From a virus (Duplodnaviria > Caudoviricetes): a DNA stretch of 64,000 nucleotides. A program made the translations under genes and the position numbers. A model generated the notes under the pieces. It worked only from the letters and a program-made list of their open reading frames with translations. It did not search any database and had not been told where the DNA came from. This document shows, piece after piece, positions 18,419-35,501 of this stretch; within the stretch, counting starts at the first letter, position 1, and the number at the start of each line of letters is the position of its first letter. The DNA lies in IMG/VR virus record IMGVR_UViG_2903109678_000002, positions 1 through 64,000 of that record, one strand, 5' to 3'.

Positions 18419-20059
18419 TTAACCCTGTTTCAGGCTGACCAGCGCCCCTTTCACATCAACACCCGCTTTTCCCGCCACTTCTGTTTTCGCCGTGGCATCA
18501 AGTTTGATGTTAACTTTCGCCTTGATGGTGGCATTGGTATCCACATCCAGCGTGGCTTCGCCTTTATTAAGTACCAATGCGCTTTTCACCCCGGCTAACT
18601 CCTGCTGTAGCGTGATACCGGTAGTCGGACTGAGCATCAGAGACTGCTTGAGCTGTTTTTCGCTGTTGGTATGCACAATCCCTACGCCGTCCGCCGGAGT
18701 GAGGAACGGTGTCTGATTGAGGGTGCTGTGCATCGAACCGAGAATCACCGGGTAACAGGGATCTTCATCAATAAACGCCACCACCACTTCATCTCCCTGT
18801 TGCGGATAGAAGCTAAAGCCATGGCCTTTGCCAGCGTAAGGGCTGCTGAGGCGAGCCCGAATCGGCGTTGGTTTGCTCAGCTGGAGCGCGGGGATGTCAA
18901 TGGCCAACGTATTATCCGCAGGCAACGGCCCAGAGGGGTTCACACCGATGACCCCCACATGCAAACCTGGCGCGCGTGGCACGCGCTCGTGGGTTATGGG
19001 TGGCGCATACTCGCTGCCGATTTCTAACAGGGTCTCCCAGTCTTCCAGGCCCTGTGTCGCGGCGGAGAAGCGATGCCTCACCCCCATCACCAGCGCCGTT
19101 CCGTCACTGGCAGTACCAAACCCTGCCAGCAGCACGCTGTTGCCGGGCTCAATGCTGGCATCACCGTGAATAGCCAGCTCTGCGGAGACGGCACTGAGAT
19201 GGTTCATTTGCAGGCGAGCGGTGGCTAACTCAACCGCTTCGCCCGGATCCAGCATGTTATAACCTTGCTGCCAAATGGCGGTGTTTAACGGCTTAACCAG
19301 CTTTGCATCGTATGCCATTAACCCCAGCATAGCGGGCAGGCCTGCACCGGGGAGTAGCTTCTGCGTTGGCACGTTCCAGCCGCCGACGTTGATCCCCTGC
19401 GCCAGTTGCTCGTTACTGTGGGTGATGGTTAACCTGCGCAGTCCCTCTTTCCCTGGGACAAAACGTACAACCGGCGCTGCCGCCAGCGGCTTAATCGCGG
19501 AAACTACGCCCAGCCCATTGGTGGCGAGCATCAGGCCACAGGCATTCAGCCGGGTTTGCACATAGCGCCAGTCAGAACAGTTGAACTGAATCATCTGGGG
19601 ATGGCTGATTTTCATCCCCTCAACTTTACCCGCTACGATGCCGTGCTGCGTCAGGATCAGGCGCAGGATCGCTTCATCCGTCATCATCGGCCAGACCTGG
19701 CTCTGATACGTTGACTTCAGCAACTGCAACGCATGGCTGAGATGTAGCTCCAGCGTGCGGGATTTATCATCCATTGAAAGTTGTGTGCGCGTCAGCCGCC
19801 CTGTAAACAGCGCGGTTTTACCCACCATAATCGTGGCCACAGCCCCCGGCAGGAACGATGCCAGTTCGGCTTCCACCTCGGGATTAGGCACTTTGCCTGG
19901 TTTCGGGCATTGAAGTACCAGCTTTGCTGTCGATACCTCATTGAGTCGGTTGATGGTGGTCAACTCAACCAGCCGAAACCCTTTGAGTGCGCTGGCTTTT
20001 TTCGTGGGCTCAACCAGGACTTTACCTGCCACGGATACTGTTAACTGATAATTGGCCAT
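18419..20059 (-). CDS. Afp8-like VgrG/gp27-gp5 central spike
   Basis: QFNCSDWRY, ARLSSPYAG, FYPQQGDEVVVAFIDEDP.YPVILGSMH; short beta-helix C-terminus. Confidence 0.92.
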   Translation of the reverse strand: MANYQLTVSVAGKVLVEPTKKASALKGFRLVELTTINRLNEVSTAKLVLQCPKPGKVPNPEVEAELASFLPGAVATIMVGKTALFTGRLTRTQLSMDDKSRTLELHLSHALQLLKSTYQSQVWPMMTDEAILRLILTQHGIVAGKVEGMKISHPQMIQFNCSDWRYVQTRLNACGLMLATNGLGVVSAIKPLAAAPVVRFVPGKEGLRRLTITHSNEQLAQGINVGGWNVPTQKLLPGAGLPAMLGLMAYDAKLVKPLNTAIWQQGYNMLDPGEAVELATARLQMNHLSAVSAELAIHGDASIEPGNSVLLAGFGTASDGTALVMGVRHRFSAATQGLEDWETLLEIGSEYAPPITHERVPRAPGLHVGVIGVNPSGPLPADNTLAIDIPALQLSKPTPIRARLSSPYAGKGHGFSFYPQQGDEVVVAFIDEDPCYPVILGSMHSTLNQTPFLTPADGVGIVHTNSEKQLKQSLMLSPTTGITLQQELAGVKSALVLNKGEATLDVDTNATIKAKVNIKLDATAKTEVAGKAGVDVKGALVSLKQG

Positions 20060-20076: not shown

Positions 20077-20811
20077 TCAGTGACCGACCATAAGGTTCTC
20101 ACCCACCTGGGGCTGATTCAGGCTGTCTAAATCGTTATCAACGGCGGTGCCCACGTAATCCACGCTGTCGCCCTGCTGTTCGCCCATCGCCGCAGCGGCA
20201 GCTGAAGCGGCTGTCAGTCCCGCGATCAGGGCAATCACCGCTGGCAGCACGGTCAGGTCAGGAACGGTCAGGTTGGGCATACTCAGACCCGCACCGACGG
20301 TGGTATCCGTTTTATAGTGCACGCCTTTAATCGAGAAACTGACTGAGGCCTGAATCGGCTCTCCTTGTCGGTTAAACAAGGTACGATTGATGGCCAGGCT
20401 GGTCATTAATCCTTCATAGGTCGTTGGACCATAGACAAATTTTACCCGTACCGGATTCGAGGTCAGCATATCTACCCCATGCACCAGGACCGTTAACGCC
20501 TCAATAATTTGCTGCACGGAATAAACGCGTTTTTCAGGCAGCGTGGAATCGAGGGTTAACGACAGATGCAGGGTCACGCCACTGGTCTGAGTACGCATCT
20601 CACTGTCTTTACCACCGGATAAGCTACTGACACTCTGGTAGCTGGACGTATGGGTGGTATGCAAATTGTCTGGATTGAAATGCAGAGGAATGCCCAATGG
20701 AAACAGCAGCAATTCCGGTGCGGTGACACCGACAGTGTAAGACTCATCGCTATAGCCATATAAGGTGGCTTTGGCGGGAATCATGGTTTTCAGCTGGCTG
20801 ACGATACTCAT
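20077..20811 (-). CDS. Afp7-like tube initiator protein
   Basis: FNPDNL, LTLDST, TLFNRQGEPIQA; degenerate LysM-like end NDLDSLN..VG..L. Confidence 0.78.
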   Translation of the reverse strand: MSIVSQLKTMIPAKATLYGYSDESYTVGVTAPELLLFPLGIPLHFNPDNLHTTHTSSYQSVSSLSGGKDSEMRTQTSGVTLHLSLTLDSTLPEKRVYSVQQIIEALTVLVHGVDMLTSNPVRVKFVYGPTTYEGLMTSLAINRTLFNRQGEPIQASVSFSIKGVHYKTDTTVGAGLSMPNLTVPDLTVLPAVIALIAGLTAASAAAAAMGEQQGDSVDYVGTAVDNDLDSLNQPQVGENLMVGH

Positions 20812-20987
20812 CTGAACCTCCAGGCTTCATCACGTATTTTTGCCATCACCTGGCTCATGACCTGGCGCGAAATACGATTGACCAGGTCCGCTTCGGTAAC
20901 CGGAGAGAGAGAGGCTGCCGGTGGCTGATCGTTGATATCATCAGTGACGCGTGCTTCGATGATCAGTTCACGAATTTCAATCGTCAT
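20808..20987 (-). CDS. Afp6-like spike plug protein
   Basis: MTIEIRELIIEARV motif; overlaps the upstream stop codon (ATGA). Confidence 0.82.
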   Translation of the reverse strand: MTIEIRELIIEARVTDDINDQPPAASLSPVTEADLVNRISRQVMSQVMAKIRDEAWRFR

Positions 20988-21448
20988 AGTTTGACTCCCA
21001 GCCATTCAATGCTGCGACAGGTAAACTCAAAGCTGTTGATCAGCGGCTGGCCCGAATCGGCATCCAGCGCCCCGTATTGCATGCGCACCGGGAGTGCATC
21101 ACTCGCCATCCAGATTGACTGCGGCTTGCCAGACTCCCCCAGCAGCATGATGGTAATGTCGAAATAGGTGACCGAGGTCAGGAACTCGCTCAGGATCAAC
21201 TGCACTCCCACGCTCATCGGTGTGGGGATCATCACCCCCCGATCAAACACCAGGTTTGAAGTGGTCGAGCGCTGCGGGAGTACCCGGTTGCTGGCGTTAT
21301 GCCCGCCTTCGTGAATCGATCGGGTCTGTAGCTGGTAGCCGAGCCCCGTGATACTGGCAAACTTAAAGCTTAACGGGTCTGGTACTAAGCCCAGCAAGAC
21401 AAAAGAGGCGAGAAAACGGTGATTCAGTTCAGGCTGATAGATGCTCAC
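20984..21448 (-). CDS. Afp5-like tail tube protein (gp19 family)
   Basis: FASITGLG, EGGHN, NLVFDRGV, ALPVR, LDA. GTG start after GGAGGA. Confidence 0.87.
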   Translation of the reverse strand: MSIYQPELNHRFLASFVLLGLVPDPLSFKFASITGLGYQLQTRSIHEGGHNASNRVLPQRSTTSNLVFDRGVMIPTPMSVGVQLILSEFLTSVTYFDITIMLLGESGKPQSIWMASDALPVRMQYGALDADSGQPLINSFEFTCRSIEWLGVKL

Positions 21449-21449
21449 G

Positions 21450-22646
21450 TTATCCTCCCGTGGCCGCGACATGCTCGGCAGTCAGATAGAAGTCGAGATT
21501 AATATGGATAAATTCGGCCGGTCTTTGGGTCGCCACCGCCACCCTGACGCGCAGCAAACCACTGGCGATTTCACTGGCTGACATGGTTTCATCCAGACCG
21601 ACACTGATTTTATAGGCATCATCTTCTACGCCCCCGGCCAGCCCCCCTTGTTCCCACAGCCTTTTAAGCTGTTGGCGCACCACGGCATGCAGCCGGTACC
21701 AGGTGATTTCATTGTTAGGTTCAAAGACATAAGGGCGCATAGCCTCTTTCAGCGTCTGTTTAATCCACTTGACCAACCGCTGATTTTGCAGATAGACAAA
21801 GCGCAGGTCAGGTTGATTACTCAACGTGCGGCAACCCCAAATTTTAACGCCGCGACCGGGGAAACTGCGGATCTGATTCACCGAGCGGCCGCTGCGCGGA
21901 TCAGGATGGAACAACGTGACGGGTGTGAGATGGTCATACTGGGGTTTGAGCACCCGCTCCAGCCGCAGGTTAGCGGGGGCGTACCAGATACCCCGCTGCT
22001 TATCAGACTGTTGCATTTTGGCCGCCACGGCCGCACCCGGAGGCACGGCCCGCAGCGCGCGCGTGGGAAAGGCCGGATCTTCGCTGACCATCACCCACGG
22101 CCAGTATCCCGCAAGGTGTGCCCAGTGTTCATTGCCCCATTTTGCGTTGTATTTTTCTGCGTCAGCAGGCGCACTCGGATAGTCAATTAAACCCGTCAGG
22201 TTCAGGCTCGAGGCGCAGCAGATGGCCAGTTGATTAACCACACTTTCCCACTGGTTCTCATCTAGCAGCGGGAGTTCTGGCAGCACCACCAGCGTAATGG
22301 TGGGCTCGTCTGCCAGCAGGGCAAAGGCTTCATCGTAGCCCGTAACAGAGGGGACATCGTCGATCAGTGTGCCGAGAGAAATCACATAGCACTGGCCGCC
22401 ACCATGACTGAAGTAGAGGCGCATAGCGTCGGCGAGATAGCCACCGTTGCGCACAGCATCACGGCCAAACTGGTCATAATAGTCTTGCAGCGAAGTGACC
22501 TGTACCCGCTCAAGTACCGATGCTTCAGGATGGTCGGCATAACCAATAAACACCGGCAGCGCGGTGAGTTTTTCCCGCTGGCTGATGTTGATGATCTGTT
22601 GATGAAAAGAGACGCCGGGCTGACTGAAATCACTGTTCAAAGACAT
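21450..22646 (-). CDS. Afp4-like tail sheath protein
   Basis: QPGVSF, LPVFIGY, YFSHGGG, GIWYAPAN, WGCRTL, RPAEFI. Confidence 0.9.
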   Translation of the reverse strand: MSLNSDFSQPGVSFHQQIINISQREKLTALPVFIGYADHPEASVLERVQVTSLQDYYDQFGRDAVRNGGYLADAMRLYFSHGGGQCYVISLGTLIDDVPSVTGYDEAFALLADEPTITLVVLPELPLLDENQWESVVNQLAICCASSLNLTGLIDYPSAPADAEKYNAKWGNEHWAHLAGYWPWVMVSEDPAFPTRALRAVPPGAAVAAKMQQSDKQRGIWYAPANLRLERVLKPQYDHLTPVTLFHPDPRSGRSVNQIRSFPGRGVKIWGCRTLSNQPDLRFVYLQNQRLVKWIKQTLKEAMRPYVFEPNNEITWYRLHAVVRQQLKRLWEQGGLAGGVEDDAYKISVGLDETMSASEIASGLLRVRVAVATQRPAEFIHINLDFYLTAEHVAATGG

Positions 22647-22711
22647 GGCTTAACCTCTTTACGTCTATTTTACGGAAGGTGGCAGGAGACGTGCCAACGC
22701 GTGGACGGCAC

Positions 22712-23986
22712 CTAAGCGGCCATAAGATCCTGCGAGAAGTCGAGCCAGAGAAACTCCACCGGACGCAGCGCCGCCAGCCCGATGCGGATGCGCAAAATGC
22801 CAAGGCTTAACTCACTGGACGTCAGCGCCAGTTCAACCTGGAAAGCCTGCTGTGGCGTTTCCCCATACAGCCCTCCCTGCTGCCACAGACGGTGCAGATA
22901 CTGATTGATTGCTGCCCGCGCCGACTGCCAGGTGCCTGCTGAGTTGGGTTGATACACCACCGGCAGCAGCAGGTTACGGACATCGCGCTCAACGGTGTTA
23001 AACAGCAGCCGCACCGGGATGTAGCGCCAACTGCTGTCGCTACTGGTCGCCAGCGTGCGAGCGCCCATCACCGTCGTGCCACCTTGTTCCTGCCAGAGAA
23101 TGGCATTAACGCCCCGTTCGTTGAGATCACCATGCTGAGCGTTACCAATGGCACGCTGCGGGTCAACGCCTTCCAGCGCAAGATTGGCGCTGGCCTGCCA
23201 CACGCCCAGTTGGCGCTCGGTGCGACAGTAAAGCCCGGCAACAGGTGCACAGGGTGAGAGCGTGAAGGTGTTCAGGTGCTGGTAATCCACGGTGACGAGA
23301 TTGAGCCACTGCTTGACCTTGCGATAGGTTTCCCGCTGTTTAGCCGTCCCCTGCGCCAGCGAGCTGAGGCTGCATGCAAGGTCACGGAGCCAGATATCCG
23401 ACGCCTGAATACTGAGCGGTTGACGCGGCACCAGATCCGGCGTGTAGCAGGCACTCTGTGCCTGTTCGCCGTAACGCGGTGGATTCCCACTGCCAACCAC
23501 ATAGCGCAGCAGCAAAAACGACTGTGGTAGCCGTGAAGTTAAGCCACCAAGCTGCGTCAGAATAGCCTCATCATCATGGCCCACATCAATCAGCGCCATC
23601 AGCGAGATATCATCCCGCTGCGCGAGGATTTCGCTGAGGCGCGCAATCTCATCACCCTGCGCCAGCGACAGGATGTAACAAGGGCCACCGCCGTTTTCGA
23701 AGTAGCTGCGCAAGGCAAATGCTGCGCTGTGAACGGCACTGCGTTCTGGCTGTAGGCTGTCTGGCAGTGAGTCGGTCTCGACTTCCACCCACACTTGCGC
23801 CCCCTGCAACAGCTGGCAGTAGTGCTGCCAGTTTTCAATCCACACCGGGCCATAGCTAAGGCTTAGTGGCGTGTTGTCCTGCTGACGAAAACGCCCCACC
23901 AGCAATGGCACCAGCTTGCTCATGCCGGGACTGGCCAGTGCCAGCCGGTTGTTCTCTTTAATAAATACGCCGGGATAATTGCTCAT
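22712..23986 (-). CDS. Afp3-like tail sheath protein (copy 3)
   Basis: YPGVFIKE, VPLLVGRF, YFENGGGPCY, MGARTL, WRYIPVR, RPVEF. Confidence 0.9.
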   Translation of the reverse strand: MSNYPGVFIKENNRLALASPGMSKLVPLLVGRFRQQDNTPLSLSYGPVWIENWQHYCQLLQGAQVWVEVETDSLPDSLQPERSAVHSAAFALRSYFENGGGPCYILSLAQGDEIARLSEILAQRDDISLMALIDVGHDDEAILTQLGGLTSRLPQSFLLLRYVVGSGNPPRYGEQAQSACYTPDLVPRQPLSIQASDIWLRDLACSLSSLAQGTAKQRETYRKVKQWLNLVTVDYQHLNTFTLSPCAPVAGLYCRTERQLGVWQASANLALEGVDPQRAIGNAQHGDLNERGVNAILWQEQGGTTVMGARTLATSSDSSWRYIPVRLLFNTVERDVRNLLLPVVYQPNSAGTWQSARAAINQYLHRLWQQGGLYGETPQQAFQVELALTSSELSLGILRIRIGLAALRPVEFLWLDFSQDLMAA

Positions 23987-24057
23987 CCTCTTCTCCTGGG
24001 AATCCATCGGGCCGCAGGGCGGCTGACGGCGAAGGGTTCAGGTGGTTAGGTATAGAT

Positions 24058-25455
24058 TCAGGCGAGAACCTGTAGCTGTTGGGTAAATTCCAGTTCGATA
24101 AATTCTGCGGGCCTGAGCGGCGCCAGGGCGACACGAATGCGCATTACCCCTTGTGCCTCGTCATCCTCATCCAGCGCAACCTGCACCTGGAAGGCCTGCT
24201 CCGGGGTCAGCCCTTGTAATCCACCCCGTTTCCACAGCAGGTAGAGGTATTGGCGGATGCCCGCCGTGGCCGCTTGCCAGCTGCGTGCGCCGTTGGGTTC
24301 GAACACCTGCGGTTGGATTATCGCCTGTAGATCTCGCTGCACCGCGTTAAACAGCAGGCGTACCGAGACGAAGCGCCCGTTGAGGTCTTGCGTGTCTGCG
24401 GTGCGCGCCCCGGCGATCACCGTGCCAGTGCGAGGCGACCACAGCAGCGGGTTAAAGCCTGCCTGAGTGAGCTCCGCCTGCTGCGACAGAGTGAGATTAT
24501 GGGTCGGCGCGGGGCCAGCGAGTTGAATGTTGGCCGGTGCTTTCCAGATGCCGCGTTCGCGTTCAGTTTTGCAGAAAACACCGGCGACACCACCGGAAGG
24601 GGCCAGGGTAATAGCCCGTAGAATGCTGTCATCGAACTGGTCAGTGTTACGCCTGGCGGTGACATTGGCATATTGCTCTCTTTGCCTTTCATCATCGCTG
24701 ACTTTAAGTTGTGCAAGGGTTTTACCGGTGCCCGCGAGCAGGGTGCTCTCTTCTTCCAGTTCACCGCCCGGCGAAGAAAACTTCAGTGCAGGTGTGTAAG
24801 TTGCAACCTGGCGGTTATCCGGCAGCGGTTGCGGAGGTACAGCGCCAGGGTACGGCTGATGGGTAATCAGCATGGCTTGTGGGTTAATTTCCTGCAACAG
24901 CGGAAAGGCAGTTTGCATGGCCACTTTGGCCTGGTCATCCAGGGCTACGTACAGGGTAATGTCATTATATTCTTGCAAAGAACCCGCGATTTTTCCCCCT
25001 TGCTGCTCGCTTTCGCAGTGCATGACATAGCAAGGGCTGCCACCATTATCAAAATAACATTTGACCCCAGCAGCACCCGTAGCGATGTCTGATGATTTAA
25101 GCACCACAATGTGATTATTTTCAGGTACTGGCACTGCACCGAATGTCACATCGTCTTCCATTGCGGAGAGGGATGTTTGCAGCGGCGATTCATCGCCTTG
25201 TTTTCTGTCTCCCCCCTTTTCAACAATCGGTTCTCCCCAACCATTCGCTAAAACAACGGTACGGGCATAAGGCGCGAATCTGGCCAGAAAAGCCTGATAA
25301 CTGTCAATCCACAGCGGTGCATTAACATGCTCGTCAGGATCGCCGCTGCAGCTCAGAAAACACCCCAACAACAGCGGCACATGGCCACTCGCGGCTGCCG
25401 CTCCCCGGCTGGGTGAATCCACTTCAGTAATACGCACACCAGGAATGTTACTCAT
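24058..25455 (-). CDS. Afp3-like tail sheath protein (copy 2)
   Basis: IPGVRITE, VPLLLGCF, YFDNGGSPCY, GIWKAPAN, RPAEFIELEFTQ. Confidence 0.9.
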   Translation of the reverse strand: MSNIPGVRITEVDSPSRGAAAASGHVPLLLGCFLSCSGDPDEHVNAPLWIDSYQAFLARFAPYARTVVLANGWGEPIVEKGGDRKQGDESPLQTSLSAMEDDVTFGAVPVPENNHIVVLKSSDIATGAAGVKCYFDNGGSPCYVMHCESEQQGGKIAGSLQEYNDITLYVALDDQAKVAMQTAFPLLQEINPQAMLITHQPYPGAVPPQPLPDNRQVATYTPALKFSSPGGELEEESTLLAGTGKTLAQLKVSDDERQREQYANVTARRNTDQFDDSILRAITLAPSGGVAGVFCKTERERGIWKAPANIQLAGPAPTHNLTLSQQAELTQAGFNPLLWSPRTGTVIAGARTADTQDLNGRFVSVRLLFNAVQRDLQAIIQPQVFEPNGARSWQAATAGIRQYLYLLWKRGGLQGLTPEQAFQVQVALDEDDEAQGVMRIRVALAPLRPAEFIELEFTQQLQVLA

Positions 25456-25547
25456 AACAGCTCCTCATCATGATGGCGTATCACCCACCGTAACCGGACG
25501 GTGCGATTAGCCACGGGCAAAATAAGTGTGATACGGCGAGAAAAGGG

Positions 25548-25589
25548 AAAAAGGGGCGGTGAAGCATGAGCAGCCAGTGAACACCGCCC
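25548..25589 (-). terminator. Terminator-like stem-loop after the first Afp3-like sheath gene
   Basis: Minus strand GGGCGGTG...CACCGCCC followed by CTTTTT; the loop is long. Confidence 0.5.
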
Positions 25590-25601
25590 AAAACAGCGTG
25601 A

Positions 25602-27005
25602 TTACGCGGCGGCTAACAGTTCCTGAGTAAACTCCAGGTCGATAAACTCCACCGGGCGCAACGCAGCAAGGCTGACGCGTACGCGCAGGATGCCGTTGTC
25701 GATATCCCCGTCTTGCAGCGCAATCTGCACCCGATAGGCCTCTTCTGGCGAGTTGCCAAACAGCCCACCGCGTTTCCAGATACCGTGCAGATAGTTACTG
25801 ATACCCGCCACTACCGCTTGCCAGGTAGGTGCTGAGTTCGGCTGGAAGATAATCGGTGCCAGCATTGCGCTGACATCACGTTCCACGGTGTTAAATAACA
25901 GGCGTACCGGGACGTAGCGCCAGTTAGTAATGTTGGGATCTGCGGAGGTGCGCGCCCCCATGATTGAAGTGCCCTTCTGCGGCGACCACAAAATGGCATT
26001 GACCCCAGCCTCGTTCAAAACACCGTGTTCCTGGGCACTAATAGTGTGTACTGGCGTTACCCCCACCAGAGAAACGTTCGCAGGTGCTTTCCACACCCCA
26101 CGGTTGCGCTCGCTGGTGCAATACGCGCCCGCCACAGCGGCAACTGGCGAGAGAGTTAGCGAACTCACCGCTGAGAAATCCAGTGGCGCGAGTGCCAGAT
26201 TGTCTTTTACCGTTTTGTAAACGGCTTTATCTCGCTGAGCGGAAAGCAGCGCATTACCCAGGAAAATACCGTTTTCATTCACCACGTTGAAATTACTCTC
26301 CAGCTTCAGCTCTGGGGTGTAACTGGCAGAAAATTCATTTTTAGGCATGACCGGGCCGGCTGGTGGCGTACTGCCGGTAAACGCTGCATGGGCAATAAAC
26401 AGGGATTGTGGATTATGCTCTTGAATCGCGGCAATACTGCCTTTAACCAGCTCTTGCGCACTGGCATTCAAAGGCACATACAACGAGACTTCATCCAACT
26501 CTGCCGTGGCTTTTTCTAAATCGTCTTTTGCATCAGAAGCGCTTAAAGCGAGGAGATAGCAAGCGCCGCCCCCGTTCGAAAAATAGCTGGCCACTGCTGC
26601 CGAGGAATTGTCATACAAATATGAACTGCTGATTTTTGTTGGCTGGCCGCTGGTAAAAGGTACCTCCGTGGCCGCAGCCACGCTATCAGCCTCTTTTGTC
26701 GCTTTTTTACTTTTTTTAGCTTCTACGCCTCCTGCCTCTTCGCCGCTTTCTTCATCACCGCCTTCCGGAAGGGGGGCCGCCTGGCCCCATGCCGGCGCCA
26801 GTTTAATAATCAGCGGGGCCGCAACGAATTTTTCAGCAAACTCCGCATAGTTAGCCACATAGACTGCGCCATCTGCCGCATTGGCTTGCGTTCCGTCCTT
26901 TTTCCAAAAGGCTCCCACCAAAAGCGGCACCAGGCCGCTCATGCCCGCAGCACCCACCGAAGGGGTACTGCTTTCAATAATTTTCACTCCAGGATTTCTA
27001 CTCAT
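25602..27005 (-). CDS. Afp3-like tail sheath protein (copy 1)
   Basis: NPGVKIIE, VPLLVGAF, YFSNGGGACY, GVWKAPAN, WRYVPVR, RPVEFIDLEFTQ. Confidence 0.92.
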   Translation of the reverse strand: MSRNPGVKIIESSTPSVGAAGMSGLVPLLVGAFWKKDGTQANAADGAVYVANYAEFAEKFVAAPLIIKLAPAWGQAAPLPEGGDEESGEEAGGVEAKKSKKATKEADSVAAATEVPFTSGQPTKISSSYLYDNSSAAVASYFSNGGGACYLLALSASDAKDDLEKATAELDEVSLYVPLNASAQELVKGSIAAIQEHNPQSLFIAHAAFTGSTPPAGPVMPKNEFSASYTPELKLESNFNVVNENGIFLGNALLSAQRDKAVYKTVKDNLALAPLDFSAVSSLTLSPVAAVAGAYCTSERNRGVWKAPANVSLVGVTPVHTISAQEHGVLNEAGVNAILWSPQKGTSIMGARTSADPNITNWRYVPVRLLFNTVERDVSAMLAPIIFQPNSAPTWQAVVAGISNYLHGIWKRGGLFGNSPEEAYRVQIALQDGDIDNGILRVRVSLAALRPVEFIDLEFTQELLAAA

Positions 27006-27032
27006 GATCGATCCTCATGAAAAGGCGCGTGA

Positions 27033-28301
27033 TCACGCGCCACTGGCAACTTGTTGGCTAAACTCCAGCACGATAAATTCCGCCGGGCGCACCACCGCAA
27101 TACCGATACGCGCTTTGAGGATTCCGTTATCAATGTCGGCCTGAGTCATGGTGACTCCCAGTCCCACCTGAATAAAGAAGGCCTCTTCCGGCGTATTCCC
27201 CTGTAACGCGCCTTTTTTCCACAGGTTGTAGAGGTAGTTCTCTACGGCGGCACGCACCGCCTCCCAGGTTGCCTGGCCGTTGGGCTCAAACAGCACCGAT
27301 TCCAGCGCCCGGCCAATATCGCGTTCTGCCATATCAAAGGTACGGCGCACCGGGACATATCCCCAGGCATTGCCGCCAGTGGTCAGCGTGCGAGCGCCCC
27401 ATAGCAGCAGACCACGCCCTTTGAATTCGCGCAGAATATTGACGGATTTGGTGGTGTGGTTTCCGCTGGTAAACAGGGCTTGCGTGGCTGACCCCACTTT
27501 AACCAGTGGGCTTAAACCCGAAGAGACAGCAGCATTTGCCGGTGCTTTCCATGGGCCTACGCTATTGTCAGTGCGACAGATGATGCCCGCTGCGACAGCA
27601 CTCGGCGCAACATTAGCAATCTCGGTCACCCCCGGAATGCTCCAGTTGGCTTTCAGCCATGGATAATAAACTGCAGCATGCTCTGTGGCCTGGATACCGC
27701 CGAGCGCAGTTTCAAGCTCACCTTTAACATCCCCTTTTGACTCCTCCGGCCCGTCCAGTAGAGCAAAACGCCCACTGCCTTCCGCGGTGTACTTCAGGAT
27801 GTCAGATGTTACTGTGCTCTGACCCGCCTGCACCACCAGGGTGACATCGGGCAATTTGTCCAGCCATTCGAGCTTATCTCTGGGCAGCAGATAGCAATAA
27901 CCGCCACCATTATCAAAATACGCTTTAAGGGCGGGTAAAGTGTGTCGATCCCAGTCCGGCACATCTGCCGTTTTGGTATTCACACCCATGGCATCGGCAA
28001 GACGAGGATGATGCGCCGGCCCGCCACGAGAAAGGCGTGAAAGCAGACTAACAACGGCACGCGGCGAGTAGTAGGCCACGCTTTCCGATTTACTCCCGCT
28101 GGCGGAGAAATAACTGAGTACATCCGCAAACGAATTGATCAAAGCGGGTTTTTCGCCCAACGCCTTCCACCAATCCAAAGAGCCCGAATTGCCGTCCAGA
28201 ATCACCGGTACTGCTGTCGCCGAGCTGCTGATGCTGAATGAGGGCAAATCCACCTCATCCACATACACGCCCGGCGCTTTTGGTAAAGTAAATACAGCCA
28301 T
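27033..28301 (-). CDS. Afp2-like major tail sheath protein
   Basis: APGVYVDE..SISSSATAVPV, YFDNGGGYCY, GPWKAPAN, WGARTL, RPAEFIVLEFSQ. Confidence 0.93.
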   Translation of the reverse strand: MAVFTLPKAPGVYVDEVDLPSFSISSSATAVPVILDGNSGSLDWWKALGEKPALINSFADVLSYFSASGSKSESVAYYSPRAVVSLLSRLSRGGPAHHPRLADAMGVNTKTADVPDWDRHTLPALKAYFDNGGGYCYLLPRDKLEWLDKLPDVTLVVQAGQSTVTSDILKYTAEGSGRFALLDGPEESKGDVKGELETALGGIQATEHAAVYYPWLKANWSIPGVTEIANVAPSAVAAGIICRTDNSVGPWKAPANAAVSSGLSPLVKVGSATQALFTSGNHTTKSVNILREFKGRGLLLWGARTLTTGGNAWGYVPVRRTFDMAERDIGRALESVLFEPNGQATWEAVRAAVENYLYNLWKKGALQGNTPEEAFFIQVGLGVTMTQADIDNGILKARIGIAVVRPAEFIVLEFSQQVASGA

Positions 28302-28328
28302 ATAACCTCCAGAAGGTTAAGCAGTACA

Positions 28329-28784
28329 TTACAGGGCGTGGCATTCCACGGTCAGACGATCGGCATTCAGGGTGATCTGCTTCGCCGCCACTTCATTGCT
28401 GGAAGCTTCGAGGCTTGGCCCGGTAATTCCGGTTGGGAAGCAGTTGAATACGTTCCAGGTGACATAGAGCTTTTTGCCCGATTCATCCGTCAGACTGATG
28501 GCGATATCTTTTTTGCCATCTGCGTGGTTGGCATAGTTATACAGCCACTCATACAGCTTGCACTCACCTGGGAAGATCGCCTGAGAAAGGGTGATAGAAG
28601 GTAACTGAACGCGCGTGATGTTGCGGAACAGGCCGCCCATACCATCGCGGTATTCATAACTTTCATACTGCTGGTCGAGGCCGCTTACTGAACTACAGCG
28701 GATCACATCACCGTCAATGGTTACAGTGAAGCGAAAACCGGGAACCGGATAACTTGCATCAATGATATCAGTGGTATCTGCCAT
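28329..28784 (-). CDS. Afp1-like major tail tube protein (gp19 family)
   Basis: YPVPGFRFTV, SVSGLD, YRDG, KKDIAISL, FPT..GPSLEASSNEVA. Confidence 0.93.
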   Translation of the reverse strand: MADTTDIIDASYPVPGFRFTVTIDGDVIRCSSVSGLDQQYESYEYRDGMGGLFRNITRVQLPSITLSQAIFPGECKLYEWLYNYANHADGKKDIAISLTDESGKKLYVTWNVFNCFPTGITGPSLEASSNEVAAKQITLNADRLTVECHAL

Positions 28785-28858
28785 GGTTATTTCTCACTTT
28801 GCAGGTTTGAACGTATCCGCTGCCCGCAGGCAGTCAGGATGGATGAACAACATTGATT

Positions 28859-30235
28859 TCAGGAGGTCCCGGTGGCTGACCTCAGAGGAACTAATTGCGT
28901 CAGGTTATTGTTAGAAGCGAATCTGGAATCTTGTGCGATCACAGAATCGGGGTGAATCCCTGGTAGTGGCGCCATCACGCCGAGCACCTGCTCAACGCTA
29001 ATAAACTTCGAGCAGGAAAACTGTTCACTGGTGCCCTTGTGACGTGGACACCAGAAAAAATCCTTTCGATCAAATTGATAGCGAGTGTCATTCCAGCAGC
29101 TATTGCAGACGTGGGTGTTAGTCACCCGATAGGGCGTGGCGAACTCGGTCGCTGGATTGCTAAATCCGCTGATCATCACCACCGGTGTGCCTGCGGTCCA
29201 GGCCAGCCAGGAGAGCCCGCTACTGAGGCCGACAAAAAATTCCGCGTGCATCAACCACCGCAGACGCTCGCTCAAGGGGCGATTGCCGGTTTCGTCTTCA
29301 GCGCCATGGGGAATGTGATTCCAGGTCAGATCGCGTCCTACTGTGGTCTCTTTGTCGATGCAGATCACCCGATAACCGCGTTCTTTAAGCTCCCGCACCA
29401 GTTGTATCCAGCCAACGGGATTGTTCCAGAATTTACACTGCGAGGTAGACTGAACGCCGATACAGACGTAAGGCTCCGCAATGGGGCGACGGTTTTCAGC
29501 CAGCCTGAACTGTGCGGGGTTTTCATCTGGGGCAAGGCCAAGAATGGCGCTGGCGATATGGTGTAGTGGCGTTTGTTGACCGTCAACCGGGCAGTATTCC
29601 CCCTGCGTATCCCCTATACCTGCATTCAGGAAGTAGGTGGCGTAATAGGTGGTTTCATCCGGTTCATACGGATCAATAAAGCGAATTTGCGGATAGCTGC
29701 TGGCAAAAACATCGTGGAAGCGTGCCGAGACACGGACCGTGAGACGGCACTGATGGCGTACCTGAAAACGCATCACTGAGGGCAGCCAGGCGAGGGTATC
29801 CCCCAGGGTATCTTCGGGGATTTGTATCAGCACCGGTTGCTGATACAAATCCATGACGTGCAACATGACAATCTCATTGTCTTTCTGCACCTGAAAGGCA
29901 AACGGCACGTAATACTTGTGTTTACTCTCAACCATCCCTCCTGACACCGCAGTATCACCAAACACGTGATAGTTCTGGATATCCACTACGCGTACGCGCC
30001 AGTTGCCTTCGGGTAGGTGAATGCGACAACCATGATTAAAGTCAAACAAAATGCCTGTGCCCTCTGCCCCCTGCTGGGTCGGCAGCTCGGGAACGGGGGC
30101 ATAAGGCGACTTTTTAAAATCAGAATCAGAAGCCACGGCGTACGACGACTCTGGTACAGAATCTTCTACGTGTTCGGGTTGTGGACGACTTTCAGGCGAT
30201 GGAAATGCAGCGTTATTAGGCGTAAAAAAACTCAT
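28859..30235 (-). CDS. TibC/Aah-like protein O-heptosyltransferase (BAHT family)
   Basis: FDFNHGCR, KYYVPF, TLGDTLAW, QSTSQCKFWNN, GLSSGLSWLAW, VVMISGFS and a four-Cys iron finger (CNSCWN...WCPRHKGT...FSCS). Confidence 0.92.
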   Translation of the reverse strand: MSFFTPNNAAFPSPESRPQPEHVEDSVPESSYAVASDSDFKKSPYAPVPELPTQQGAEGTGILFDFNHGCRIHLPEGNWRVRVVDIQNYHVFGDTAVSGGMVESKHKYYVPFAFQVQKDNEIVMLHVMDLYQQPVLIQIPEDTLGDTLAWLPSVMRFQVRHQCRLTVRVSARFHDVFASSYPQIRFIDPYEPDETTYYATYFLNAGIGDTQGEYCPVDGQQTPLHHIASAILGLAPDENPAQFRLAENRRPIAEPYVCIGVQSTSQCKFWNNPVGWIQLVRELKERGYRVICIDKETTVGRDLTWNHIPHGAEDETGNRPLSERLRWLMHAEFFVGLSSGLSWLAWTAGTPVVMISGFSNPATEFATPYRVTNTHVCNSCWNDTRYQFDRKDFFWCPRHKGTSEQFSCSKFISVEQVLGVMAPLPGIHPDSVIAQDSRFASNNNLTQLVPLRSATGTS

Positions 30236-30320
30236 ATTTCACCTTTATTTTTAAATAGGGCAGGTTATTTTTTCTGCTTATTGAGTTTTTATTTGCAGAT
30301 TTATAAAAAAGTGTTTTAGG

Positions 30321-30350
30321 CAGACTACCGTCCTCAGACATTCAAGCTGA
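30321..30350 (-). promoter_or_regulatory. ops-like (RfaH) element with JUMPstart-like upstream stem
   Basis: Minus strand GACGGTAGTCTG (30321-30332) is one mismatch from GGCGGTAGnnTG, is preceded by TCAG-N9-CTGA, and lies 85 nt before the first ATG. Confidence 0.65.
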
Positions 30351-30844
30351 TTTTTGGTAATTTTTTTCTTGCAATAAAGGGCATTCCTGGCGAGTGCCAG
30401 ATATAACCAGTTGAGTCGATCATGTGTTCCGCGAGGTGTTGCGGTCAGAGATAATATTAACCAGGTTTCTTAATTCAGCAAGCAGGTAAGACAATAAATA
30501 GGACAAACAAACACAACCATATGATTTTTAATCAAAAAAATAATTTATCGCTAGTTGAAAAATGTGACAGAGGCGTCAATTACAATAAAATCATGGTAAA
30601 GCAAGGGGTTGGCATGACCTATAGTTACTGTCTCAATAGCCGTTTTATCCATATATTTTAAAAAAAACCTTAATAATCAACACTCATAAATCCTCGATTA
30701 GGATAAAACTCATTCAATTAATGCCATTTTATCCATAGCGCTGGATCACGGTAAGCTCGGGAACATGACAATCATATGGGGGAATATTCAGGGCTTATTT
30801 CAATATGATTAAAATCACATGACTGAACCGACATGGATTAAAAA

Positions 30845-30858
30845 TAGGATTAGTCTTA
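30845..30858. promoter_or_regulatory. Putative RcsAB box
   Basis: Minus strand TAAGACTAATCCTA matches the consensus TaAGaatatTCctA at 12/14 positions. Confidence 0.5.
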
Positions 30859-31023
30859 TTTTAGAAAAAGATCAGCCACCACGCCTACTGCTGTTCAACG
30901 TGAGAGTGATCAAGGGGACAGGAAGAGCATGTTTGAGGCGCATTCTGAAGATTGAACAAACTGCTCTTTATAACCGCAATATTGATGCGGTTTAAGTGGT
31001 TGGTGGCCAGAAGCCAGGCAAAT

Positions 31024-31062
31024 GATATCAGGAAAGGATATCAGGAAAGGATATTGAGAAAG
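31024..31062. repeat. 13-bp tandem repeat, three copies
   Basis: GATATCAGGAAAG x2 plus GATATTGAGAAAG. Confidence 0.85.
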
Positions 31063-31076
31063 GAGGTGTAGAAACG

Positions 31077-31097
31077 AAAAAACCGCCCTTAGGCGGT
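31077..31097 (-). terminator. Terminator downstream of the tRNA-Leu 3' end
   Basis: Minus strand ACCGCC-TAAG-GGCGGT then a T run. Confidence 0.75.
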
Positions 31098-31142
31098 CAC
31101 GACATTACTACATATTGCTTTGATTTTATTCAGCTTTTACAT

Positions 31143-31198
31143 TGGTGCCCGGGGCGGGACTTGAACCCGCACAGCCATAAGCCGAGGGATTTTAAATC
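31143..31198 (-). repeat. 3' half of tRNA-Leu(UAA), leuZ-like; prophage att site
   Basis: Minus strand GATTTAAAATCCCTCGGCTTATGGCTGTGCGGGTTCAAGTCCCGCCCCGGGCACCA gives anticodon loop, variable arm, T arm and CCA. The 5' acceptor strand and D arm are absent. Confidence 0.88.
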
Positions 31199-31493
31199 GC
31201 TATCTTTTGCCTTTCATTTCAATGGATTACTTAGCTTCTTCATAATATGACGCATAAGTAGCATCCTGATAAAACAATGAGTTAGAGATACGGATTGTTC
31301 CTTATTATGAAGGCTTTTTCCATACATTCGCAGGATAAGCAAGCCGCACGTAGTATCTGGAAAGCTCCACGCAGATGCCCTATTGCTAATAACCAATAAT
31401 TTAATTAGATATTAAAAAATAATGCCATTTTATATTTAAATAAAACTATCGGATATTAGTTATATTGATTCATTTAATTCTTTCTCTTAAAAC

Positions 31494-31585
31494 TTAAATC
31501 GGCCCTTATGCTTCCCCAAGGTTAAAATCTCACAAACAATCTTCCCCAGCACAAACACCTCTTCCAGTAACCCAGCTTCTATAGC
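31494..31585 (-). pseudogene. Remnant of the 3' end of a second copy of the UmuD-like gene
   Basis: Translates AIEAGLLEEVFVLGKIVCEILTL versus AIEGEALEEVVVLGKIVCEILTL in 32366-32686; frameshifted before the GPI-stop. Confidence 0.8.
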
Positions 31586-31718
31586 GGGTTTCAGTTTAAG
31601 TACCTAGACTGGATGAGTATCACTTTCGACTCAAAAAAATGCACCCGGTGGTTCATTCTCTTCTATAGTTAACTCAGCTGTAGGTGTTGCTTATCCCCTT
31701 GGTGATGTTTCATGTTAC

Positions 31719-31746
31719 TGCCCGGCTGTCTCCGGGCATTTTTTTT
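31719..31746 (+). terminator. Rho-independent terminator with no ORF upstream
   Basis: TGCCCGG-CTGTCT-CCGGGCA then T8. Confidence 0.8.
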
Positions 31747-31814
31747 CGAAAAATCACATCCCGGCTGTTCAAAAAAAACTAGTCGTGCCTAGGCACGCAA
31801 CCGAGGTATTACTA

Positions 31815-31991
31815 ATGACTACAAGACGTGGTGGAAAAGGCAATTTTGCTGAGGATACTGATAGAGCAAGAGAGGCTGGCAGGAAAGGTGGCGCTATGAG
31901 TAGCGGTAACTTTAAAAATGATCCTGCACGCGCAGCAGAAGCAGGCCGCAAGGGTGGAAAAAAGAAGAAACCAGAGCCTACATCAGACTAG
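31815..31991 (+). CDS. KGG-repeat general stress protein (YciG/YmdF-like)
   Basis: GNFAED..RAREAGRKGG and GNFKNDPARAAEAGRKGG; GAGG RBS. Confidence 0.9.
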   Translation: MTTRRGGKGNFAEDTDRAREAGRKGGAMSSGNFKNDPARAAEAGRKGGKKKKPEPTSD

Positions 31992-32035
31992 CCACTAAGC
32001 CCGGTTCTATCCGGGCATTAGCTGTAAGTCACGAT

Positions 32036-32251
32036 CTAATTGTTGGCAATCTTACATGCTTTACGCATGATTTTTGCGGCGTCTAAGGTAAATGCTTTCA
32101 CCTGCAAATCTTTCGATTCAGCGGCCATCCTTTCAAGTTCATAGAGAATATTTTCATTGTTGACATGTACGCCTCTACCAGCAAGCTTTAAGACTGCTGA
32201 CCCTATAGCACGCCCAATCATTTTCGTACGATATGCTCGAACTTCCTTCAT
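32036..32251 (-). CDS. Small hypothetical moron protein
   Basis: 71-aa ORF with helical composition, converging on a hairpin near 31998-32017. Confidence 0.6.
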   Translation of the reverse strand: MKEVRAYRTKMIGRAIGSAVLKLAGRGVHVNNENILYELERMAAESKDLQVKAFTLDAAKIMRKACKIANN

Positions 32252-32365
32252 TTTTAAGCTTATTTCGTCATGCTGAATCGTTACACTAAACGTTTTGAGT
32301 AATTATTCAACATAAATAATTATATATTGTGCCCTAAGGCTTTTATTTATGCTCAGAAGCCGGAT

Positions 32366-32686
32366 TCAAACTGGCCCCTCGTTCTGCTCCAAAGTCAGAA
32401 TCTCACAAACAATTTTCCCCAGCACAACCACCTCTTCCAGAGCCTCGCCTTCTATAGCTTCACCGTCTTCAGTGACTAGGCTCTTTGGGTAGTATTTGCC
32501 GATCATTGGGTAGCCCAAATGCTGGAACGCCACCCGATCACCGACTTCGATTCGGGCAACACAATCAGCCAGGACGAACCCGGTTGATGTGTCGATGCGA
32601 AATGTTGCATCTGGGTGCGGCATGCAGATTTTGTTCAGGTCGATTCGTGATTCAATGTAGTCACTGGCCGGACTTGGGAATCCCAT
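32366..32686 (-). CDS. UmuD-like (degenerate S24 family) protein
   Basis: Starts MGFPSPASDYIESRIDLN, matching the processed-UmuD N-terminus; no clear GDSM catalytic Ser motif. Confidence 0.75.
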   Translation of the reverse strand: MGFPSPASDYIESRIDLNKICMPHPDATFRIDTSTGFVLADCVARIEVGDRVAFQHLGYPMIGKYYPKSLVTEDGEAIEGEALEEVVVLGKIVCEILTLEQNEGPV

Positions 32687-35108: not shown

Positions 35109-35405
35109 TTAGCTTCTTTCGAAACTGATTTTAATCCTGATATCTTTCTCCGGACGTCCTTTAGGGAATCGCCATTTATAAATCTGGTCCCTTACCGCAT
35201 CGTCAAAAAGATATGCTGGTGTACTGCTTATAACCCTGACGTTCTCAGCCTTTCCGGTATCACCAATGTCATACATGACATCAACGCTGCCTGACTGACC
35301 TAGATACCACGCTCTTTCTGGATAGCTAACCTTGTTTTCATTTGCACCAGCAGATGAGAAAGAAAGCATTAAAAAAACCAGAAATAATTTTGGTAAGTTA
35401 TTCAT
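35109..35405 (-). CDS. Secreted stand-alone TonB C-terminal domain protein (moron)
   Basis: Signal-peptide-like MNNLPKLFLVFLMLSFSSAGA, then YPERA..G.SG.V.V.YDI...G....V.VISS.P..LFD.AV....KWRF; AGGAGG RBS. Confidence 0.8.
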   Translation of the reverse strand: MNNLPKLFLVFLMLSFSSAGANENKVSYPERAWYLGQSGSVDVMYDIGDTGKAENVRVISSTPAYLFDDAVRDQIYKWRFPKGRPEKDIRIKISFERS

Positions 35406-35501
35406 GACGCCTCCTGTGTTATTCACACAATGAGAACACAGATTCACTTACTCATGATTGAATTTATTCGATCTTAATGATCGAGTTTGCTTATTATTAA
35501 A

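Follow-up and report, generated by a model that had tools for sequence, protein, structure and literature searches.

The gene at 28859-30235, on the (-) strand of the 64,000-nucleotide stretch of DNA analysed here (the window), encodes a TibC/Aah-family O-heptosyltransferase (BAHT) of 458 amino acids and stands at the head of a 20-gene, Afp/PVC-like eCIS operon. We put the probability at roughly one half that this enzyme, a member of an eCIS lineage of BAHTs and the product of the first gene of the operon, heptosylates serines of one or more particle proteins. The identity of the acceptor is the most conjectural part of this reading.

We used the curated equivalog model TIGR04414 (hepto_Aah_TibC, NCBIfam) and an alignment to the solved TibC structure to assign the protein to its family. 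A score above the cut-off of 200 bits defines membership in TIGR04414; the protein scores 532.6 bits over residues 50-421, and the match covers profile positions 2-371 of 374. Pfam matches to TibC_1st (PF21129, 67.5 bits) and Glyco_transf_9 (PF01075, 31.4 bits) correspond to the two-domain architecture of an N-terminal TibC beta-barrel and a GT-B (GT9) catalytic domain. Residues 41-424 align with residues 5-386 of TibC (4RAP) at an E value of 5.9e-112. A disordered N-terminus of about 42 aa precedes the TibC-type beta-barrel, and the GT-B/GT9 domain with its iron finger is followed by a low-confidence C-terminal tail of about 30 aa. The AF2 model, which was built on an alignment of 11 sequences only, is confident over residues 50-200. 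Its pLDDT is below 50 over residues 1-42 (26-31 over residues 1-40, with a mean of about 36 over residues 1-50), 29-36 over residues 430-458, and low in the thumb region (295-318).

The earlier note had described a TibC/Aah-like enzyme with the motifs TLGD and Q.KFW and four cysteines intact, and both the family score and the alignment to TibC bear this out. TLGD is located at residues 143-146 and QCKFW at residues 266-270. The catalytic base of TibC, D110, aligns with D146, and the ADP-heptose contacts T226, K230, R286, and W305 align with T264, K268, R324, and W343 (residue list from the available part of PMC4358343). The iron-finger cysteines C339, C342, C358, and C370 of TibC correspond to C377, C380, C396, and C408; these four are invariant in all 74 aligned BAHT rows, over which 51 columns are invariant, catalytic and iron-binding residues among them. 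The position of TibC P300 is occupied by Ser338, and Aah likewise has a serine there. According to the same part of PMC4358343, TibC P300 and Aah Ser294 set the stereoselectivity for the heptose donor, Aah accepts both ADP-heptose epimers, and TibC is an iron-containing dodecamer of 578 kDa. At the ring-building and thumb positions, F265/V266 of TibC are replaced by L303/T304, and F368 is kept as F406. The protein is predicted from these residues to be an active, ADP-heptose-dependent enzyme, and its own genome encodes HldE and HldD above the respective cut-offs, which points to a supply of the donor.

A protein of this family may also serve its partner in another way. Burkholderia needs BimC, a BAHT-family protein, for its BimA-dependent actin-based motility (available text of PMC6439308), and the window's protein might by analogy help to assemble or target an eCIS component, mainly without catalysis. 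The ring-building elements that such a role could draw on, the iron finger and F406, are largely kept. However, neither the catalytic base nor any of the four sugar-binding residues has changed, and the catalytic Asp is present in seven of the nine sequences of the clade described below, which argues for selection on catalysis. We consider the non-catalytic role improbable.

The stop codon of the BAHT gene ends at 28859, and the ATG of the tube gene is at 28784; the coordinates confirm that the two genes are co-oriented on the (-) strand and separated by 74 nt (28785-28858), as had been claimed. On the (-) strand of this gap, a scan of 28000-32500 revealed neither a terminator-like nor a promoter-like site, and contigs from runs X2, X4, and X5 bridge it. 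One bridging contig of 298 bp was not counted in support of co-transcription; its source run was merely guessed to be RNA. The composition of the BAHT gene (GC 53.0%, GC3 57.5%) resembles that of the adjoining tube and S1-S3 genes. Position, gap, and composition suggest that the BAHT gene and the eCIS genes after it share one transcript.

The leader upstream of the BAHT gene (30236-30483, (-) strand) is conserved in a related contig and carries a ribosome-binding site and an ops-like word. The related contig, 20,313 bp long and from run X2, is about 93% identical, covers 27500-30483 unbroken, and diverges beyond; the right border of the island is probably at 30483. Because the conserved leader extends to this position in the related contig, the BAHT gene is placed inside the island. 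The ribosome-binding site, AAAGGT, precedes the ATG, and both the site and the start codon are conserved in a metagenome contig, G496. The ops-like word GACGGTAGTCTG is located at 30321-30332 on the (-) strand, 85 nt before the ATG, with one mismatch to the ops consensus. The ops-like element proposed earlier thus stands as a word at this position; the word is not enriched in the window (three observed versus 4.45 expected, not above chance), and a search allowing up to one mismatch did not find it in 15.8 kb of the G496 locus, leader included. We treat an ops/RfaH element in the BAHT leader as a weak lead.

The lineage I eCIS core set is complete in one co-directional cluster, with Pfam matches for all but two baseplate proteins; all coordinates that follow are on the (-) strand. 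Directly downstream of the BAHT gene is the gene for tube protein 1 (28329-28784), an Afp1/Pvc1-like protein of 151 aa that matches PF06841 at 4.6e-27 and is 88% identical to the tube of G496. Five consecutive sheath paralogues follow (21450-28301), each with a Phage_sheath_1C match: S1 (27033-28301), which also has matches in its own genome, S2 (25602-27005), S3 (24058-25455), S4 (22712-24007), and S5 (21450-22646). Next come tube 2 (20984-21472), a CIS_tube/Afp7-like protein (20077-20811), a VgrG-like spike (18419-20059), gp25 (17957-18400), and a spike tip (17526-17960), all with Pfam matches. The two large baseplate proteins of 932 and 1011 aa (11651-17481) have no Pfam match and are 43% identical to the proteins in the same place in G496. 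The tape-measure protein (9227-11629, 800 aa; CIS_TMP, 7.9e-56) contains about seven tandem repeats of 39 aa, seen as an autocorrelation peak at offset 39. The tail fibre (7636-9099, 487 aa) has an adenovirus-fibre-like shaft (Av_adeno_fibre match) rich in S, T, N, and G, and its gene has a GC content of 43%, versus 56% for the eCIS. A Pvc16-like cap (6502-7434) and an AAA ATPase (4384-6447), both with Pfam matches, precede two extra S1-type sheaths, which are 50-51% identical to S1: S6 (2772-4169), with a Pro/Glu-repeat tail, and S7 (1-2487, 828 aa), fused to a C-terminal beta-propeller that was recognized by an FG-GAP_2 match at 5e-21 in the G496 homologue. The operon ends with S7, and housekeeping genes lie past the left end of the window.

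The arrangement of a BAHT gene followed by an eCIS recurs. In G496, the BAHT is 54% identical, and a gap of 105 nt separates its gene from the tube gene, which is followed by a complete eCIS. The BAHT and tube of a Serratia marcescens have consecutive accessions (MEN4128700.1 and MEN4128701.1) on one contig of 127,138 bp. In Pantoea sp. A4, according to a published supplement, a GT9 gene of 1377 nt is followed, after 74 nt, by afp1. Of the nine closest BAHT clusters, eight are linked to eCIS genes by a common contig or accession run; for clusters P0002, P0004, P0005, P0006, and P0008 the contigs agree in length. Two S. marcescens loci (BEM38644.1 to BEM38662.1 and BEM40959.1 to BEM40975.1) and one S. 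odorifera locus (HEI8868276.1 to HEI8868291.1) also contain a BAHT. The pairing is seen in Pantoea, in Serratia, and on a metagenome contig, among proteins that have diverged by about 45%.

The nine closest BAHT clusters form one clade with an SH-aLRT support of 100 and a stem length of 1.03. Six changes are fixed in this clade, three of them in the beta-barrel (N52H, L54F, and F55G in TibC numbering), a domain with a part in substrate recognition or in enzyme integrity according to the available text of PMC4358343. The seven sequences that keep the catalytic Asp are P0001 (the window's protein) to P0008 without P0006, whose row is offset in the alignment; P0009 has Glu. In subclade A the BAHT gene is the first of the operon; in subclade B, 15-18 accession steps separate it from the tube gene, and it lies at the operon end. 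Given that loci which have diverged from one another keep the pairing, and that the BAHTs linked to an eCIS group in a clade apart from the others, we regard these BAHTs as an eCIS-dedicated lineage rather than a stray gene; a functional tie between BAHT and eCIS appears well supported by these sequence comparisons.

Close relatives of the tube and sheath include, by name, Serratia plymuthica, S. inhibens, Enterobacter, and Xenorhabdus. None of these names occurs among the best 120 BAHT matches, and for this reason the BAHT looks dispensable for the particle. At E ≤ 1e-45, the tube was found in one of 401 relatives (G000 only), so this set held no BAHT-less eCIS of the same subfamily. Neither such an eCIS nor a subclade B locus was present in the 36, two, and two genomes of three guessed genera, and scans of viral contigs with P0002, P0004, P0006, and P0007 gave no new eCIS locus.

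We compared the neighborhood of the window's gene with those of other BAHT genes. An autotransporter gene with ESPR and AIDA repeats lies directly downstream in all 20 enterobacterial BAHT loci scanned (three of three in Pantoea and 17 of 17 others of the same family), in agreement with the earlier statement that BAHT genes usually adjoin their substrate gene. The downstream neighbor of the window's BAHT gene is a gp19-type tube and not an AIDA-repeat substrate gene. Tail families were absent from the 124 neighbor proteins of those BAHT loci, and tblastn detected an eCIS gene at none of 113 other BAHT loci. In the plasmid collection, the best tube matches were classical Afp types with at most 50% identity. 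The BAHT matches among plasmids were all less than 60% identical, and the features listed with them were the transferase itself and, in three rows, an AIDA repeat-containing protein.

The absence of an autotransporter gene from the window, noted earlier, was confirmed by a domain scan of the window's own genome, which found no autotransporter domain on the window's contig. This genome is 100% complete. A six-frame scan of all of it detected no TIGR04415 or PF16168 repeat at E ≤ 1, and it contains no ESPR above the cut-off and no YadA anchor or trimeric autotransporter; by these scans, the BAHT gene has no canonical partner in it. On contig C1, the domain scan returned a single classical autotransporter; C44 gave a weak porin-like match. 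The C1 protein, 928 aa long and with Autotransporter, AC_1, and Pertactin domains, matches no AIDA-type repeat at E ≤ 1.

The BAHT could act on a protein outside the eCIS, foremost this autotransporter, and be merely co-mobilized or co-regulated with the island. The C1 passenger is a beta-helix with a repeat period of 20 residues, and its gene has the same distribution as the island, occurring in one of 75 genomes of the genus (G000 only). Aah and TibC also glycosylate Ag43, and BAHTs thus tolerate more than one beta-helix. However, the C1 passenger has neither a TIGR04415 or PF16168 match at E ≤ 1 nor an ESPR, and its gene is on a different contig, whereas BAHT gene and substrate gene are direct neighbors in all 20 enterobacterial loci scanned. 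Hitch-hiking alone also does not explain a pairing kept over about 45% protein divergence. We consider an acceptor outside the eCIS unlikely, though it deserves more weight than the non-catalytic role. The missing canonical partner could also mean that a BAHT-autotransporter pair was lost and that the BAHT gene is what remains of it, without function and next to the eCIS by chance. Against this stand the intact reading frame, the 51 invariant columns, the presence of the same junction in G496, S. marcescens, Pantoea sp. A4, and metagenome contigs, and the lack of any autotransporter remnant at either end of the island; a chance remnant is very improbable.

The disordered N-terminus raises the question of whether the particle carries the enzyme as a payload, with the N-terminus as a loading signal for the AAA ATPase, or whether the enzyme modifies a payload. 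PVC signal peptides are disordered stretches of the N-terminal 50-70 aa with a mean pLDDT below 40 (available part of PMC11495950), and residues 1-50 of the BAHT, at about 36, are within this range. The window's operon, with S7 as its last gene before the housekeeping genes, contains no recognizable payload gene other than possibly the BAHT gene. Payload genes are usually located at the distal end of eCIS operons, and the BAHT genes of subclade B are at the payload end. In contrast, the BAHT genes of subclade A head the operon, and the window's gene is upstream and not downstream of the structural genes. Other features do not fit a payload either. All ADP-heptose contacts are kept, and to our knowledge eukaryotic targets do not make ADP-heptose. 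The iron-finger cysteines of TibC, which works as a large iron dodecamer, are kept too; BAHT homologues from Bradyrhizobium and Paraburkholderia (P0048 and P0072) are extended at the N-terminus as well; and the disorder call comes from the model based on 11 sequences. A payload role seems doubtful to us, somewhat more so than action on the C1 autotransporter.

We return to modification of the particle. The earlier note had proposed an eCIS component as the substrate. The tie between enzyme and eCIS is upheld by the recurrence and the separate clade; a specific acceptor is not, as no eCIS protein was found to have AIDA or TIGR04415 repeats, either in six frames of the genome at E ≤ 1 or in two fibres searched against Pfam and NCBIfam at E ≤ 10. 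Because these repeats are lacking, an eCIS acceptor would need a new specificity. S1-type sheaths have an insertion of 50-55 aa that is absent from all 13 Pvc2/Afp2-like sheaths compared. This serine-rich insertion occurs throughout the aligned long-S1 sheath subfamily, including members without a known BAHT; it was rejected as a BAHT-linked discriminator, the BAHT-linked members having no clear excess of serine. Our best guess for the acceptor is the adenovirus-like tail fibre, and next the surface of the S1, S6, and S7 sheaths. The enzyme, expressed as an active TibC-type O-heptosyltransferase from the first gene of the operon, would meet its substrates in the cytoplasm of the producer, where particle proteins under assembly and the ADP-heptose of the LPS-core pathway would come together, and heptose would be added to serines of at least one particle protein before the particles are released.

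The window's enzyme resembles TibC and Aah of E. coli, which act on TibA and AIDA-I, in family, beta-barrel, GT-B domain, 1Fe-0S iron finger, catalytic base, and ADP-heptose contacts. It differs in that a phage-type tube gene, and not an autotransporter with ESPR and AIDA repeats, lies downstream in a genome without AIDA repeats, and in that it falls into a separate clade with a long stem and fixed changes in the beta-barrel. The particle, known here from its genes, shares its core gene set with the lineage I eCIS Afp (Serratia entomophila) and PVCs (Photorhabdus), and Afp1 is 47% identical to the window's tube. Unlike Afp and the PVCs, the window has five sheath genes in a row and two extra S1-type sheaths, of which one has a propeller fused to it; its tape-measure gene precedes the fibre gene, no toxin gene lies downstream, and a glycosyltransferase heads the operon. 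BimC and BimA of Burkholderia pseudomallei offer a case in which the partner of a BAHT-family protein is not an AIDA-type classical autotransporter (available parts of PMC6439308 and PMC11499645), but BimA is still type V secreted and the two genes adjoin, whereas the neighbor in the window is a phage-tail-like machine. A tail structure coated with sugar has its closest precedent in the mycobacteriophages Che8, Corndog, and Myrna, in which, as the available text of PMC12363180 describes, the phage's own glycosyltransferase acts on capsid and tail-tube proteins inside the producer cell. That case differs in its glycosyltransferase families, sugars, and hosts, and it concerns infectious phages and not injection particles.

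We know of protein O-heptosylation only in autotransporter adhesins. Post-translational glycosylation of an eCIS particle was not described in the literature searched, in whose available text the sole glycosyltransferase tied to an eCIS is an injected toxin domain, that of Afp18 (PMC10598620). We tentatively suggest, at a little short of even odds, that a BAHT lineage exchanged type V adhesins for phage-tail-like particles as its clients, and that some enterobacteria release particles decorated with heptose. If so, an eCIS-dedicated BAHT lineage would represent a new substrate class for this enzyme family. Protein-linked heptose on the fibres or the sheath surface would determine which targets are bound, how stable the particle is in the host gut or on plants, or how host immunity recognizes it, a new layer of particle biology such as targeting, stability, or immune visibility. 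PVC-type particles are being engineered for protein delivery, and an enzyme that decorates them from within their own gene cluster would be useful in practice.

The product of the gene at 28859-30235 (minus strand; an ORF of 458 aa) scored 532.6 bits against NCBIfam TIGR04414, the equivalog for autotransporter strand-loop-strand O-heptosyltransferases (BAHTs; cut-off 200 bits). It contains the Pfam domains TibC_1st and Glyco_transf_9, and residues 41-424 align to the solved TibC (4RAP) with an E-value of 5.9e-112. The functional TibC residues taken from PMC4358343 are all present in this alignment. The catalytic base D110 of TibC corresponds to D146, the ADP-heptose contacts T226, K230, R286 and W305 to T264, K268, R324 and W343, and the iron-finger cysteines C339/342/358/370 to C377/380/396/408. 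The earlier note had described a TibC/Aah-like enzyme with motif residues and four cysteines intact, and the family score and the TibC alignment bear this out. Ser338 occupies the position of TibC P300, where Aah has Ser294; PMC4358343 gives these two residues as determinants of donor stereoselectivity and reports that Aah accepts both ADP-heptose epimers. The window's own genome encodes hldE and hldD, so the ADP-heptose donor is available.

The gene lies 74 nt upstream of a gp19-type tube gene (Pfam) and, as had been noted, in the same orientation, both being on the minus strand. After this first tube come, all on the minus strand, five sheath paralogues, a second tube, an Afp7-like protein and a VgrG-like spike; then gp25, a spike tip, two large baseplate proteins and a tape measure; then an adenovirus-like fibre, a Pvc16-type cap and an AAA ATPase; and finally two extra S1-type sheath proteins, one with a beta-propeller fusion. 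The last ORF of this extracellular contractile injection system (eCIS) ends at window position 1 and is bordered by genes for a sulfate permease, a TonB-dependent receptor, a PLD-domain (phospholipase D-type) protein and glucan synthesis, which leaves the operon without a recognisable toxin gene. A consensus scan of the minus strand found no terminator-like or promoter-like site in the 74-nt gap, and placed the first terminator upstream of the BAHT gene at 31098-31081. The GC content of the gene (53.0%; GC3 57.5%) is similar to that of the adjacent tube and S1-S3 sheath genes. An ops-like element had also been claimed upstream of the gene; the word is there, at 30321-30332, but it has one mismatch to the consensus, is not enriched in the window, and was not found in 15.8 kb, leader included, of a second full locus on metagenome contig G496.

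In a 20,313-bp contig of a different sequencing run, 27500-30483 is present unbroken (213 letters differ, and there are 2 gaps). Past this stretch the contig diverges, which places the border of the island some 250 nt upstream of the BAHT start codon. In Pantoea sp. A4, by the Pfam labels in the supplement of PMC8213781, the island is preceded by response-regulator, UvrC-domain and CDP-alcohol phosphatidyltransferase genes. At ~31081-31200 of the window, on the minus strand, a fragment resembling a tRNA 3' end precedes a terminator-like hairpin; ARAGORN detected no complete tRNA in the window. This stretch is where many contigs of other runs start or end, and the lambda-like prophage at 33046-62800 is probably integrated at this tRNA site. 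At the tail-fibre end of the prophage, a 112-aa ORF (35109-35447) has a TonB C-terminal domain, and the first 34 residues of a 106-aa ORF (32366-32686) match the UmuD/HumD N-terminus.

The closest BAHT relatives form nine 90%-identity clusters, some from Serratia, which are 50-56% identical to the window's enzyme in the multiple alignment and 51-58% in BLASTP local alignments. One of them (P0003) lies on the 35,646-bp contig G496, where a BAHT gene (54% identical) is followed after a 105-nt gap by a tube gene (88%), three sheaths, a tube, an Afp7-like protein, a spike, gp25 (62%), a tip and two baseplate proteins (43%), and then by a fibre, a tape measure, a cap, an 830-aa sheath-FG-GAP propeller fusion (37.5% identical over 826 aa to the window's homologue) and an ATPase (52%). 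In Pantoea sp. A4, supplement file 9 of PMC8213781 shows a Glyco_transf_9 gene of 1377 nt, separated by 74 nt from afp1 and five sheath genes. In S. marcescens, a BAHT (MEN4128700.1) and a tube (MEN4128701.1) have consecutive accessions on the same 127,138-bp contig, and contigs of identical size carry BAHT and tube or sheath clusters for P0002 (123,627), P0122 (5,427), P0005 (20,969), P0006 (23,592), P0008 (94,318) and P0004 (227,761); such contig-size and accession matches are evidence of co-location, not of gene order. One S. marcescens genome has two BAHT copies and two tube genes, 18 and 16 accession steps apart, and in S. odorifera the distance is 15 steps; in both, the BAHT lies at the distal end of a cluster the size of an eCIS. 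Of the nine clusters, P0009 alone, whose contig is 14.5 kb long, gave no eCIS link.

We placed these sequences in a tree of 78 hand-picked BAHT rows, of which 38 have an AIDA neighbour, 9 a type I secretion neighbour and 3 a Hint neighbour; 4 come from viral contigs, 15 are of unknown context and 9 are the closest relatives. These nine group in a single clade (SH-aLRT 100; stem of 1.03 changes per site) in what was a quick search without bootstraps, with very long viral outgroup rows. Six fixed differences separate the clade from 65 other rows, three of them in the beta-barrel (TibC N52H, L54F, F55G), which PMC4358343 links to substrate recognition or enzyme integrity. The clade splits into subclade A (five members; support 96) and subclade B (four; support 97). 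In subclade A the gene is directly before the tube gene wherever its position is known (in the window, in G496 and for the S. marcescens pair with consecutive accessions); for P0005 and P0006 the evidence is a contig shared with eCIS genes. In subclade B, P0004 and P0007 are 15-18 accession steps from a tube gene, P0008 is linked to eCIS genes by a shared contig, and P0009 has no link.

The subclade B genes sit at the payload end of the cluster, as they might if the BAHT were itself an eCIS payload, or a modifier of one. We consider this quite improbable: the donor, ADP-heptose, is not known to be made by eukaryotes, and TibC works as an iron-bound dodecamer. Residues 1-50 of the BAHT do have a mean pLDDT of ~36 (AF2 model from an 11-row alignment; overall mean 67.8), which fits the working criterion that PMC11495950 gives for PVC signal peptides. 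On contig G496, a 2034-aa ORF without a Pfam match lies at 122-6226 on the opposite strand, just past the eCIS ATPase gene, and may encode a toxin or payload.

The own genome (48 contigs; 100% complete by marker genes) has one BAHT gene. The search for AIDA-like substrates that the earlier note had called for gave neither a TIGR04415 target repeat nor a PF16168 AIDA repeat at E<=1, no ESPR (autotransporter signal-peptide extension) above the cut-off and no YadA anchor. Draft assemblies can drop repeat-rich genes, so a missing AIDA-type partner is not proof of absence. Apart from a weak porin-like match, the only classical autotransporter, on contig C1 (40161-42944; 928 aa), has a passenger with a 20-residue repeat and an ordinary signal peptide. 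That the BAHT acts on this target elsewhere in the genome is unlikely in our view, yet the autotransporter has the distribution of the island: it was found in this genome alone among 75 of the genus (0/74 others at E<=1e-50).

For an enzyme acting within the eCIS, the candidate substrates would be the fibre, the sheaths and the propeller. No AIDA-type repeats (TIGR04415, PF16168) were found in eCIS proteins, in the own genome or in the fibres. The fibres, rich in S/T/N/G, appear by resemblance to be the most adhesin-like eCIS parts; that of G496 has six or seven 17-aa repeats. The window's fibre gene (7636-9099) has a GC content of 43.1% (GC3 38.9%), compared with ~56% in the rest of the eCIS, its product is 31.5% identical to the G496 fibre, and it looks like a targeting module swapped in recently. 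In the tape measure (9227-11629), residues ~190-460 comprise about seven near-identical, basic, Pro/Gln-rich 39-aa tandem repeats; its counterpart in G496 is shorter, at 619 aa, and only the last 168 of these align to the window's protein. The locus has seven sheath paralogues (1-4169 and 21450-28301); the two S1-type copies that come after the ATPase are one with a Pro/Glu-repeat tail and one (828 aa) that carries the propeller. This sheath-propeller fusion is common to both full loci, its G496 homologue (contig 8747-11239) matching FG-GAP_2 at 5e-21, and a propeller-displaying sheath subunit seems out of the ordinary among eCIS. In both loci, the S1-type sheaths also have a 50-55-aa insertion absent from 13/13 Pvc2/Afp2-like sheaths compared; we rejected it as a BAHT-linked mark, since it is present throughout the long-sheath subfamily.

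A full-text literature search found no paper tying heptosyltransferase or glycosyltransferase modification to eCIS; the dbeCIS paper and the PMC11495950 supplements were outside its scope and may affect novelty. The main text of PMC8213781 has no words beginning 'glycosyl', and its supplement file 4 gives no eCIS enrichment for Glyco_transf_9 (4 genes; p ~0.16).

Of the other genomes searched, three of 36 in the genus and 18 of 400 in the family had BAHT genes. We surveyed their neighbours by a Pfam scan of 124 co-directional ORFs, each cut to 390 aa, from 87 of 118 BAHT loci, leaving out opposite-strand neighbours and loci too short for any neighbour. ESPR and AIDA repeats were directly downstream in 3/3 Pantoea loci and 17/17 other family loci scanned, so the proposed neighbourhood survey returned the usual autotransporter partner in all 20; the 18th family locus, a partial match with its neighbour on the opposite strand, fell outside the scan. 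No tail family matched among the 124 ORFs, and in tblastn searches with the 20 proteins of the window, none of 113 other BAHT loci showed an eCIS gene.

An AIDA-repeat neighbour was present in 27/55 metagenome loci, with an autotransporter beta-domain in one more, and in none of seven viral-contig loci. The latter (L042-L048; two contigs of 255 kb and 329 kb, the others 5.5-56 kb) have BAHT-like genes, 33-39% identical and nearly full length, next to Mom-family proteins, methyltransferases, primase and ThyX, with no adhesins; their products may modify DNA or virion proteins. Neighbours in the remaining metagenome loci include type I secretion genes, Hint_2 proteins and one collagen-repeat protein (L059, L066, L068, L073, L074, L077, L081, L085, L087, L088, L090, L093, L113; L103, L104, L107; L009). 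Many BAHT genes from soil and peat metagenomes have neighbours of these kinds, the type I secretion genes being those for HlyD and C39-ABC transporters. With such neighbours, the substrates of the BAHT family are already wider than autotransporters.
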